Shown here: positions 1,674 through 7,743 of the stretch, in pieces | How positions within the stretch are numbered: position 1 is the first letter of the stretch | Layout: each line of letters begins with the position of its first letter | Position numbers and translations under genes: made by a program | Source of the DNA: a virus | Virus genome (UHGV): UHGV-0171102 | Strand: one strand, 5' to 3' | DNA length: 11,480 nucleotides | The notes under the pieces: model-generated | Database searches by the model: none | The model's input: the letters and a program-made list of their open reading frames with translations, nothing else | Told to the model about the DNA's origin: nothing

Positions 1674-1894
1674 GCGGAAAAAGAATGACTAACAGAGAGC
1701 TTGTCGATGCCGCGATTAAGCTTGCTGGTGATTTTTATTCAATGATGGGGTACACGCATCGCCCAGGCTTCAAATATTGGGCGTCTCCTCACCCGCAAGA
1801 GCAACTGGTATTTCAAATGGCCTGCCGTGCTTTTGAGGTTATTCGCGGTTCTGATGTGATGGACGCCGTTGCCGACTTGGAGGATGAAGAGTGA
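1670..1894 (+). CDS. Hypothetical small protein (74 aa, acidic C-terminus)
   Basis: GTG start with a strong SD AAGGAGG (1657-1663) 6 nt upstream; alternative ATG at 1685. Translationally coupled to both neighbours (GTGA overlaps). Confidence 0.7.
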   Translation: MSGKRMTNRELVDAAIKLAGDFYSMMGYTHRPGFKYWASPHPQEQLVFQMACRAFEVIRGSDVMDAVADLEDEE

Positions 1895-2625
1895 GCGAAA
1901 TTAATTATCAGGCACTGCGTGAGGCGGCGGAGAAGGCAACGTGGGGAGACTGGGACTCATATAAACCACACCGTGGCGCACGTGGTTATGAGGTCCGACT
2001 AAGTAGTCAGGCCATTGCGCAACACGTTCTGAAAAACAACGCTGAATTTATTGCTGCCTTTAATCCAAAGATTGCTTTGGCACTACTGGATGAACGGGAA
2101 AGGAACCAGCAATACATCAAATCCCGCGACCAGGAGAACGAGGAAATTGCGCTAACGGTAGGGAAGCTGCGCGTTGAGCTGGAAGCAGAAGAGAAAACAT
2201 CAGCAGCTAGACTTGAGGCGCTCGACCGCACCCACAAAATGTTCCAACGGGAACAATGCAGGGCAGAGGCCGCAGAGAAGCGCATTGCTGAACTGGAGAA
2301 AAGCGAAGAGCAACTCATTAATGAGCGTGACCATGCTGAGTCTGCTTTAGCTGATATGTATTTTGCAGCAACCGGGGATAGGCCTGAGTGGAGTAACTGG
2401 TTCGGTTTTTCAGATGCAGTAGATGCCGTAGTTGACAGAATTGCTGATTTAGAAGCTAAACAGCCATCGCCAGTAGTACCTGAAGGACTGATTAAAGCGG
2501 TGCGTTTTTATGAGCAGGTAAAACGTGAGAACCCGCCAGTCGAAACAGGAGCATGGAAAGACGCTGTTGACTGGGTGCTCAAAGAGGCTTGCCAGGCTGT
2601 AAACATTGGCATCAAAGGAGAGTGA
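1891..2625 (+). CDS. ead/Ea22-like coiled-coil protein (244 aa)
   Basis: GTG start with SD GGAGGA (1879-1884) 6 nt upstream. N-terminus ...YQALREAAEKATWGDWD... resembles ead/Ea22-like prophage proteins as I recall them. The central region is E/K/R-rich and heptad-like. Confidence 0.7.
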   Translation: MSEINYQALREAAEKATWGDWDSYKPHRGARGYEVRLSSQAIAQHVLKNNAEFIAAFNPKIALALLDERERNQQYIKSRDQENEEIALTVGKLRVELEAEEKTSAARLEALDRTHKMFQREQCRAEAAEKRIAELEKSEEQLINERDHAESALADMYFAATGDRPEWSNWFGFSDAVDAVVDRIADLEAKQPSPVVPEGLIKAVRFYEQVKRENPPVETGAWKDAVDWVLKEACQAVNIGIKGE

Positions 2626-2626
2626 G

Positions 2627-2932
2627 ATGATTCACTATCACGGTGGGCCTATTACTCCTGATACGTGCGCCATGAGAGCATGGAAAGGGCGACATGCGTT
2701 TATCAGTTTTGCGCATTCAGGCCAGATCAATCTCGCGGCTGAATACTGTCAGTCGTTCGCGCTGGACAACGGTGCATTCACCGCCTGGAAAGCAGCTGGC
2801 AAAAACAAAATCGACTGGAGCGATTACTACGAGTTTGTTGCTCGCTGGAAGAATCACCCAGGATTCGATTTTGCCATTATCCCTGATGTTATTGATGGCG
2901 GAGAGGAAGAAAATGATGCGCTTCTGAATTAG
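2627..2932 (+). CDS. tRNA-guanine transglycosylase-like (DpdA-family) protein, N-terminal segment, ending at an in-frame TAG at 2930-2932
   Basis: ATG 2627 with SD AAGGAG (2615-2620). Motifs HGGPITPD and LDNGAF resemble the TGT family G-x-V-x-TP and L-x-D-S-G-G-F substrate-binding motifs. The frame continues after TAG. Confidence 0.65.
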   Translation: MIHYHGGPITPDTCAMRAWKGRHAFISFAHSGQINLAAEYCQSFALDNGAFTAWKAAGKNKIDWSDYYEFVARWKNHPGFDFAIIPDVIDGGEEENDALLN

Positions 2933-3382
2933 TGGCCTCACGGAAAACTAGCTGGCGTTCCAGTGTGGCACATGAATGAAAGTGACGAGCGATTTATTCA
3001 TTTGTGCAATGAGTTTCCGCGAGTGGCTATCGGTAGTTGTGGCGACTATGACGTAAAGCGCCCAACTCTTGCGGTAGCCAGAATGAAAGACCTGATTCGT
3101 CACATTGTTGATGAGTATGGTCAGCCGGTTGCGAAACTACATGGATTGCGCATGTTAAATCCGCAGATATTCACAAAATTACCCTTAGCCAGCGCAGATA
3201 GTACGAACGTCGCTCGAAACATCGGTATTGATAAAGCCTGGTCTGGGGCTTATGCACCTGCAAGTAAAGAGACACGAGCAGCATTAATGGTAGAACGGAT
3301 TGAGGCACACAATAGCCCTGGTTCTCTTGCGTATTGTGAACAACGCGACCGCTTTGAAATGCAATTGCAACTAGCAGTTTAA
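2933..3382 (+). CDS. In-frame continuation (C-terminal segment) of the TGT/DpdA-like gene after the TAG; ends TAA
   Basis: Same frame as 2627..2932 with no intervening stop other than TAG. No SD before the internal GTG 2963 or ATG 2972, so independent initiation is unlikely. Confidence 0.55.
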   Translation, partial: WPHGKLAGVPVWHMNESDERFIHLCNEFPRVAIGSCGDYDVKRPTLAVARMKDLIRHIVDEYGQPVAKLHGLRMLNPQIFTKLPLASADSTNVARNIGIDKAWSGAYAPASKETRAALMVERIEAHNSPGSLAYCEQRDRFEMQLQLAV

Positions 3383-3392
3383 GGACTAACAA

Positions 3393-4175
3393 ATGACCAC
3401 TATTACCAAAGAACGTATTGAATTGTTCATTAAAAATCCGCTTGAAAACGGGCTTACTCGTGGCGAACAAATGGAACTGGCACGAATTGCACTGGCATCA
3501 CTGGAACGCGAACTGATTCGCCACGAGCATGCCAAATGGTCTGACTCCACATTTGGCTGCGTTGGCCCCATTGGTCCACTGAAACACCTCTCAAAAGAGG
3601 CTCTGGAAGCCGCAGCCGAACCAGACGATCTCAGCGAGTGGGCTGATATGCATTTCCTGTTGTGGGATGCACAGCGCCGTGCTGGCATCAGCGATGCTGA
3701 AATTACCGCTGCTATGGAAGATAAATTGAAGATCAACATGGAGCGCCAGTGGCCTGAACCAAAAGATGGTGAGCCTCGCTTGCACATTAAAGAACCCGGC
3801 AACTCTCCGGTAATTCCGGATGGTTTATCCACGGTATGCGCTGAGGCTTATCAGGTTGTAGGAGTTATGGCAGATGCGCTTGGTGTATTCGGTGATGCAG
3901 CAGTACAGAAAGTTCTGGATAACCTGTCACAGCAAAAACTTGTTCACAGAGATGTGCTGCCGTTCTCGCTTCCGGTGACTCCGGATGGTTGGATAAGCTG
4001 TAGTGAGCGAATGCCCGCTCAAGATGATTGGATTTTAATTTATTCAAAGCACGGCGAGTATATGGCAGGACAGGTACAAGGGGAATACGTGGAGTTGAGC
4101 GACGGCACTTTATCGTGGTTAGGGAACGCCTTGTACTGGATGCCTCTACCGGAACCGCCGCAGGAGGTGAAGTGA
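3393..4175 (+). CDS. Phage protein with N-terminal MazG-like nucleotide pyrophosphohydrolase-like region (DUF550-like) and C-terminal DUF551-like domain
   Basis: ATG with SD AAGGA 7 nt upstream; 260 aa. Helical segment LSKEALEAAAEPDDLSEWADMHFLLWD...AMEDKLKINMERQW fits the MazG/HisE-like acidic-helix pattern. C-terminal ...DGWISCSERMPAQDDWILIY...WMPLPEPP is typical of DUF551. Confidence 0.8.
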   Translation: MTTITKERIELFIKNPLENGLTRGEQMELARIALASLERELIRHEHAKWSDSTFGCVGPIGPLKHLSKEALEAAAEPDDLSEWADMHFLLWDAQRRAGISDAEITAAMEDKLKINMERQWPEPKDGEPRLHIKEPGNSPVIPDGLSTVCAEAYQVVGVMADALGVFGDAAVQKVLDNLSQQKLVHRDVLPFSLPVTPDGWISCSERMPAQDDWILIYSKHGEYMAGQVQGEYVELSDGTLSWLGNALYWMPLPEPPQEVK

Positions 4176-7666: not shown

Positions 7667-7743
7667 TGGCGTGGCATGCAGGATTCGAACCTGCGACCAA
7701 CCGCTTAGAAGGCGGTTGCTCTGTCCAACTGAGCTAATGCCAC
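7667..7743 (-). tRNA. tRNA-Arg (anticodon UCU), phage-encoded, CCA encoded
   Basis: Reverse complement GTGGCAT-TA-GCTC-AGTTGGACA-GAGC-A-ACCGC-CTTCTAA-GCGGT-TGGTC-GCAGG-TTCGAAT-CCTGC-ATGCCAC-GCCA. Acceptor (7 bp), anticodon and T stems are perfect, with a 4-bp D stem and GTTCGAATC T-loop. Anticodon TCT. Confidence 0.9.

Follow-up and report, generated by a model that had tools for sequence, protein, structure and literature searches.

An amber-interrupted allele of a dpdA-family gene in Escherichia coli prophages

Singleton phage DpdA proteins and the locus

DpdA1 proteins of the type found in phages Iggy, CAjan and 9g modify 16–32% of G (PMC10484667, PMC6884629), and the dpdA gene of phage 9g alone, expressed in E. 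coli, suffices for the appearance of dPreQ0 in plasmid DNA (PMC6884629). Hutinet et al. 2019 (PMC6884629) described the singleton DpdAs of gamma-proteobacterial phages as a cluster of their own, and Supplementary Data 1 of that paper includes SPN3UB gp54 (YP_007011024) and the corresponding proteins of BTP1, SfI, HK106, SEN1 and 7-11. The family was thereby already catalogued in 2019, under the heading of DpdA-only phages. The level of modification reported for phages with a singleton DpdA is low: dADG amounts to ~0.02% of G in the DNA of phage 7-11 (PMC6884629) and to ~0.13% of G in that of MED16, which was not protected from the restriction enzymes tested (PMC8306585). A literature search found no functional work on the BTP1/lambdoid singleton DpdAs. 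More remote systems are S. Montevideo DpdA (PDB 7UI4), which has a Zn site, the Ins8 insertion and a DpdB ATPase partner (PMC10164549), and Cap10 (PDB 9NTN), a TGT-fold protein-deazaguanylation enzyme that works with Cap9 on the CD-NTase N-terminus (bioRxiv 10.1101/2025.04.06.647259).

The stretch of DNA analysed here (the window; 11,480 nt of UHGV virus genome UHGV-0171102) is a segment of an E. coli prophage or phage of the phiV10/epsilon15 type. It includes, in order, genes for a lambda-P-like helicase loader, a DUF1064 protein, an Ead/Ea22-like protein, a DpdA family protein that is interrupted by an amber codon, and a pyrophosphohydrolase-DUF551 protein, and then genes for a NinX-like protein and the small and large terminase subunits, a tRNA-Arg(TCT) gene on the minus strand, and the portal gene. 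The locus is of the same type as in the DpdA-only phages SPN3UB, BTP1, SfI, HK106 and SEN1 (group 3, PMC6884629), in which dpdA lies in the early/accessory region of temperate enterobacterial phage genomes, typically after an Ead/Ea22-type gene, and genes for preQ0 synthesis are likewise missing. An Ead/Ea22-like gene directly precedes dpdA in nearly all prophage contexts inspected, with SPN3UB as the exception, and a DUF550/DUF551/pyrophosphohydrolase gene follows it in most E. coli contexts. No folE, queC, queD or queE gene is present in the window, in agreement with an earlier interpretation made from the nucleotide sequence without database searches (the sequence-only reading). The dependence on host preQ0 that this reading deduced had been proposed in the literature for the DpdA-only group (PMC6884629). 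The coordinates of the gene, its parts and its neighbours are given in Table 1.

Table 1. Features of the amber-interrupted dpdA-family gene and its flanking genes in the window.
Feature	Position	Strand	Remarks
Upstream neighbour, Ead/Ea22-like protein	1891..2625	+	directly 5' of dpdA
Shine-Dalgarno AGGAG	2616..2620	+	6 nt before ATG 2627
Whole dpdA-family gene, amber-interrupted	2627..3382	+	251 codons with the internal TAG counted, followed by TAA
N-terminal segment, codons 1-101, predicted strands b1-b4	2627..2929	+	holds D47 (LDNGAF) and D87 (IPDVI)
In-frame amber TAG, codon 102	2930..2932	+	GAG in close relatives, GAA in Salmonella alleles
C-terminal segment, codons 103-251, predicted b5-b8 and terminal helices	2933..3379	+	PVWH115, G136-S137, H172-G173, S189-x-D191-S192
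Natural stop TAA	3380..3382	+	end of gene
Downstream neighbour, dATP/dGTP pyrophosphohydrolase and DUF551 protein	3393..4175	+	directly 3' of dpdA

Assignment of the gene to the phage DpdA family

The joined product of the window gene matched PHROG 887, the phage 'queuine tRNA-ribosyltransferase'/DpdA family, with an E-value of 4.2e-102 in a profile search. The TGT/DpdA-like identity put forward in the sequence-only reading was borne out by each half separately, with E-values of 6.5e-42 for the N-terminal and 1e-52 for the C-terminal segment. PHROG 887 also holds Iggy DpdA (5e-86), MED16 gp38 (3e-70) and the phage 7-11 protein (7e-74). Among sequenced phages, tblastn revealed homologues in BTP1 and SPN3UB (92% identity), SfI (68%), and HK106, SEN1 and SW9 (36–37%), and more distant ones in MED16 (gp38; 38%, E-value 6e-35), Salmonella phage 7-11 (36%, 1e-24) and Pseudomonas phage Iggy (DpdA; 25%, 1e-4). 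Comparison of the family alignment (A3) with Iggy DpdA using hhalign gave a probability of 98.8% (E-value 4.5e-17, 152 columns) and paired LDNGAF with LDSGAF, PVWHxxE with PCFHFGE, KLHGL with KVHGF, and SADST with SCDSS. Thus, of the two N-terminal motifs to which the earlier interpretation had drawn attention, LDNGAF has a counterpart in a validated DpdA, and no TGT counterpart was demonstrated for HGGPITPD.

A TIM-barrel TGT-like fold, as anticipated for the joined product, was also found. A search of BFVD returned 24 significant matches, many of them labelled queuine tRNA-ribosyltransferase. The family is large: it has >7,800 members with a length of ~250 aa, of which almost all are named 'hypothetical', and 1,591 clusters (50% identity) match it at E<=1e-3.

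The SPN3UB and BTP1 (SIU02687) genes, like the window gene, have 251 codons, and differ from it in having GAA or GAG at codon 102 where the window has TAG. SfI DpdA is likewise listed as DpdA-only. MED16 gp38 and the phage 7-11 protein share with the window protein the PHROG 887 membership, the singleton state and a similar size (234–261 aa), but their relationship to it is more remote, and their phages are lytic or unrelated. Iggy, CAjan and 9g DpdA1 have the same core as the window family (LDxGAF, HxxE, H-G and xDS) and also lack the Zn-binding CxCxxC, whereas they are longer (~310 aa), only ~25% identical, and encoded beside folE/queD/queE/queC; the Iggy gene is flanked by those for FolE, QueD and QueC. 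Together, these data support the assignment of the window gene as a dpdA of the singleton phage type, coding for a ~250-aa TIM-barrel relative of TGT.

Three other assignments were considered and rejected. Pfam TGT (PF01702) did not match the protein, either of its halves, or any of 53 family members; the Zn site (CxCx2Cx22H) and the large C-terminal insertion, as defined in PMC10164549, are absent from the family alignment; and comparison of the family profile with the single sequence of E. coli TGT by hhalign gave a probability of 0.7%. Hence, the protein is not a canonical TGT, and neither phmmer nor two family profile searches found a TGT among PDB sequences. It is not the DpdA of a bacterial Dpd system either, given that NCBIfam and PADLOC, including the DpdA models for defence annotation, produced no match at E<=1, that Ins8 is missing, the protein ending ~60 residues after D191, and that no dpdB (ATPase), dpdC or dpdD-K partner is found among the neighbouring replication, Ea22, pyrophosphohydrolase, NinX-like and terminase genes. 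Cap10 is the best structural match of the window protein, but the likeness is structural only (9% identity, with no sequence-level link), and membership in type IV CBASS was rejected as neither the window nor related loci include a Cap9 (QueC-like) or CD-NTase gene. The misses with curated models are not evidence against DpdA, since the Iggy DpdA, MED16 and 7-11 proteins likewise have no Pfam TGT match. Similarly, the lack of the Zn motif is no argument against membership in the phage DpdAs, as the motif is also absent from the validated Iggy DpdA.

In an alignment of 53 family sequences reaching down to 29% identity, D47, H172, S189, D191 and S192 do not vary, and D87, H115, E118, G136 and G173 are nearly invariant. 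P112 and H115 are kept even in Iggy DpdA, and both D47 and D191 align with Asp in that protein. D47 is a putative general acid/base and D191 a putative nucleophile; judging from strand positions, they would correspond to D95 and D256, respectively, of S. Montevideo DpdA (PMC10164549). By homology to validated phage DpdAs, the intact protein would be expected to act on double-stranded DNA and replace guanine by a 7-deazaguanine base in a double displacement using the two conserved aspartates. The base supplied would be preQ0 from the host queCDE/folE pathway, possibly ending as dADG.

The amber codon, its occurrence and its haplotypes

From ATG 2627, 101 sense codons (ending in ...EENDALLN) lead to TAG, after which 149 sense codons follow in the same frame, opening with WPHGKLAGVPVWHMNESDE. 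Frame reading and alignment to intact homologues confirmed the single in-frame amber codon that had been reported from the sequence. The start at 2627 and the TAG at 2930–2932 given for it also stand, and position 3382, given as the stop, is the last base of the TAA. The start codon lies directly at the TGA (2623–2625) that ends the Ea22-like gene upstream. This arrangement suggests that the translation of dpdA is coupled to that of its neighbour.

The two segments are consecutive parts of one profile (PHROG 887 positions 11–118 and 121–267) and both are collinear with the intact 756-bp genes of relatives; hence they are not chance neighbours. Intact genes of E. coli EC0026B, RM8352 and IAI39 and of a plasmid have GAG at codon 102, and in the nucleotide alignment this codon differs only by a G>T substitution, at nt 304 of the gene (position 2930 of the window). 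The interruption is thus accounted for by one transversion that converts Glu102 to amber. The question raised earlier of which sense codon relatives have at this position is thereby answered by GAG or GAA. Column 102 is variable in the family alignment (E, K, Q, C, D and A) and immediately precedes W103, which is invariant among 31 close homologues (alignment A2). The possibility that homologues naturally end here, with an independent gene downstream, does not hold, as 79 of the 80 copies in IMG/VR and all E. coli and Salmonella copies inspected are uninterrupted over 251 codons. The statement that the downstream segment has no ribosome-binding site of its own was also upheld, for no SD-like sequence lies within 20 nt before GTG 2963 or ATG 2972, the two downstream restart codons examined.

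The TAG allele was initially thought to be private to the window, and this was overturned by exact-protein look-ups in other assemblies, which located the 101-aa product in 50 index blocks and showed that 20 contigs carry the 136-aa ORF that follows it. An identical 756-nt allele (0 differences) occurs in the same prophage context in an NCBI isolate genome (GCA_030007045.1). It was found also in ENA assemblies ERZ28654762, ERZ19219875 and ERZ1311791 and in Logan assemblies ERR4560797, ERR11560401, ERR10498899, DRR256926 and ERR4034325 (contig in 16 samples), and TAG alleles are present in at least six Logan runs overall. Two other alleles, L015 and L016, were rejected as carriers because they have GAG, on contigs that end at gene nt 304.

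The TAG allele is rare. In the unbiased IMG/VR set (n=80), none of the copies has TAG at codon 102, and the single copy that is not intact has a different nonsense codon, W54*. A 73-nt probe around the TAG had no exact match in any of the 165 complete E. coli genomes that it matched, the best matches, in IAI39 and a 91.6-kb plasmid, being intact coding sequences that differ at the TAG base. Exact-pattern scans of genome, viral and metagenome contig collections were empty. A control with N at the mutated base was also empty in the genome collection, so the scan of genome contigs says nothing on allele frequency; the viral contig collection holds 51 near-identical GAG copies.

All TAG copies of the window haplotype are 100% identical over 756 nt. 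The nearest intact allele of this haplotype (L017/L018) differs by G304 and three synonymous sites. A second TAG haplotype, present in SRR14679030 and SRR30841439, lies in a different lambdoid prophage with genes for YdaT, a DnaC-like loader, Hok, a Q antiterminator and a holin, and agrees with the intact EC0026B/L019 allele at each of the six other sites by which the haplotypes can be told apart. Alleles L011/L012, which represent this second prophage type, correspond to the intact L001 allele with T304. Occurrence of the same G>T change on two haplotypes requires either short-patch gene conversion or two independent hits. The haplotypes are mosaic among 71 close alleles, with up to seven matching places per genome, and thus conversion between prophages is sufficient and recurrence is not needed; as judged by the allele sequences, a conversion tract within nt 283–504 between co-resident prophages would be a sufficient explanation. 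Alternatively, the base may have been hit twice independently, which would point to selection or a mutational hotspot. The sharing of one nonsense change by two haplotypes is in itself mildly curious.

Interpretation of the amber allele

The intact gene is under strong purifying selection, with a dN/dS of ~0.02 between E. coli and Salmonella alleles; the window allele differs from that of SPN3UB at 142 nucleotides but only 20 amino acids. In the TAG allele, translation would stop after 101 residues, with loss of strands b5-b8 and the putative nucleophile D191. A product restarted downstream would lack D47, D87, W103 and P112 and, if started from ATG 2972, also V113 and H115. The sequence-only reading had left two choices, namely that the gene is inactivated or that it is expressed only by amber suppression or readthrough; this pair is supported, and the former is the likelier. 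The window includes no suppressor tRNA gene, its sole tRNA being Arg(TCT), and no restart signal, and therefore loss of function is most likely. Both the small distance to the near-parent, which amounts to the nonsense change plus three synonymous sites, and the lack of secondary damage in the TAG copies fit a recent origin. Thus, the allele is most likely a pseudogene that arose recently, by loss of function in a dispensable accessory gene, in a circulating prophage lineage, which presumably does not express the enzyme.

Several other explanations were weighed against such a loss of function. The window is a metagenome contig (ENA ERZ1304544 NODE_5703) with a coverage of only 2.6, and the TAG could have been a sequencing or assembly error in a gene that is really intact. 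Resequencing had been suggested in order to exclude this; since the identical allele recurs in the separately assembled sequences of an isolate genome, three further ENA assemblies and no fewer than six Logan runs, error is ruled out for practical purposes. It is barely more credible that the 101-aa N-terminal and 136/139-aa C-terminal pieces are both made and combine to form an active TIM barrel in two parts. Each piece is called as an ORF by gene callers, and split barrels can complement in some engineered systems, but the restart codons have no Shine-Dalgarno sequence, either restart loses W103 and P112 and that at ATG 2972 also V113 and H115, and no homologue is naturally split at this position. 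The allele could also provide conditional or attenuated expression, by low-level UAG readthrough or, in full, in amber-suppressor hosts, so that DpdA would be host-dependent or deliberately low. Consistent with this, two haplotypes in two prophage backgrounds share the nonsense change, the TAG copies are free of additional damage, the allele occurs in many samples, and codon 102 is variable and should tolerate Gln, Tyr, Ser, Leu or Lys; any amino acid inserted by a suppressor would probably give an active protein, but there is no sign that suppressor hosts are the rule. Against it, the allele is rare (0/80 in IMG/VR and 0/165 complete genomes), natural amber suppressors occur infrequently in wild E. 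coli, a suppressor tRNA gene is missing from the window, recent clonal spread is the best explanation for the identity of the copies, and recombination among alleles, evident from the mosaic haplotypes, removes the need for recurrence. Conditional expression is therefore improbable, and recurrent selection for a suppressor- or readthrough-gated dpdA, i.e. a natural 'conditional allele', is even less probable. Should the latter be true, a potentially costly DNA-guanine transglycosylase would be kept nearly silent in most hosts and be expressible under UAG suppression.

A different kind of doubt concerns the family name, since the intact ~250-aa protein may be a TGT-fold enzyme with another substrate or role, such as protein modification, base exchange or hydrolysis; the amber allele would in that case have lost this other function. 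The best structural match is to an enzyme of protein deazaguanylation, the protein lacks two features of bacterial DpdA, namely the Zn site and the DNA-binding insertion Ins8 (PMC10164549), modification in singleton phages is very low or nil, with MED16 DNA unprotected (PMC6884629, PMC8306585), and functional divergence of singleton DpdAs was raised by Hutinet et al. 2019 (PMC6884629). On the other hand, the profile match to validated Iggy DpdA, itself without the Zn motif, is strong, both aspartates are conserved, dADG occurs in two phages whose sole deazaguanine gene belongs to PHROG 887, and no Cap9/QueC-like or CD-NTase partner is encoded nearby. A misnamed family is thus unlikely, though it deserves more weight than the explanations considered above.

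With the loss-of-function reading, the allele represents ordinary decay of a dispensable prophage accessory gene by a nonsense mutation and no new system. Given that the family was catalogued before and the type of mutation is ordinary, little new biology is involved. The TAG and GAG alleles do provide natural isogenic pairs, separated by 1 nt (from L001/L019) or 4 nt (from L017/L018), with which any DNA-modifying activity of the singleton DpdAs from temperate enterobacterial phages could be looked for. The evidence further supports annotation of the amber-interrupted gene as a DpdA-family pseudogene. At present, the E. coli gene is labelled 'hypothetical protein' in RefSeq, and in the TAG lineage it is called as two ORFs.

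Distribution of the amber codon

The G>T change that converts Glu102 of dpdA to an amber codon is present on a second haplotype as well. The copies from assemblies SRR14679030 and SRR30841439 (L011/L012) carry it, and at all six other distinguishing sites they match the intact EC0026B-type allele of L001 and L019. The host element is a lambdoid prophage unlike that of the window, with genes for YdaT, a DnaC-like loader, Hok, a Q antiterminator and a holin. Given the same change on two haplotypes and in two prophage types, either short-patch gene conversion or independent recurrence must be invoked.

Two NCBI draft assemblies, GCA_053431385.1 (L015) and GCA_024996485.1 (L016), include contigs that end exactly at gene nt 304, the polymorphic position, where the base is G. 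Their partial products are identical to the 101-aa query because the contigs end there. As the nearest upstream SNP is at nt 282, these ends may be assembly-graph breaks arising from two diverged copies of the gene within one genome.

Other lesions

Among the 80 IMG/VR loci surveyed, the only other disrupted copy is IMGVR_UViG_2695420914_000013 (L065), an independent nonsense allele in which G161A converts Trp54 to a stop codon. In Logan assembly ERR4560797 (L099), which belongs to the lineage with the amber allele, the upstream Ea22 gene was called as 346 aa, and the call continues into the N-terminal segment of dpdA and terminates at the TAG. Such a call points to an indel near the Ea22 stop codon, which could be an assembly error or an additional lesion.

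Genomic contexts of dpdA and the tRNA gene

In most E. coli prophage contexts, a dATP/dGTP pyrophosphohydrolase gene and/or a DUF550/DUF551 gene lies directly 3' of dpdA, with an Ead/Ea22-like gene on the 5' side. The trio seems to be a mobile module that occupies phiV10-like, lambdoid early-left and nin-region positions.

An intact copy is carried by a 91.6-kb plasmid of E. coli FDAARGOS_1289 (NZ_CP069886.1; L008). The 73-nt probe has 176 matching sites, 5 of them plasmid-borne; these plasmids are presumably phage-plasmids. A protein encoded by the 1,719-bp GenBank record OR850331.1, 'Staphylococcus phage SA 1298 Kay', is 92% identical to the enterobacterial dpdA product, and the record is probably mislabelled or a contaminant.

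The tRNA-Arg gene of the window is retained in relatives: the annotations of EC0026B and of O157 typing phages 9 and 10 include it. This tRNA is not a suppressor. When the whole window was compared with phages by megablast, 64 Synechococcus phage records matched part of it; the tRNA gene is one candidate region for the source of these matches.

Locations of the features discussed
Feature	Sequence	Coordinates	Strand	Remarks
dpdA	window	2627-3382	+	
dATP/dGTP pyrophosphohydrolase-DUF551 protein	window	3393-4175		
tRNA-Arg	window	7667-7743	-	anticodon TCT; between terminase and portal genes
dpdA, second haplotype	L011/L012	6001-6756		
Ea22 call	L099	1181-2221
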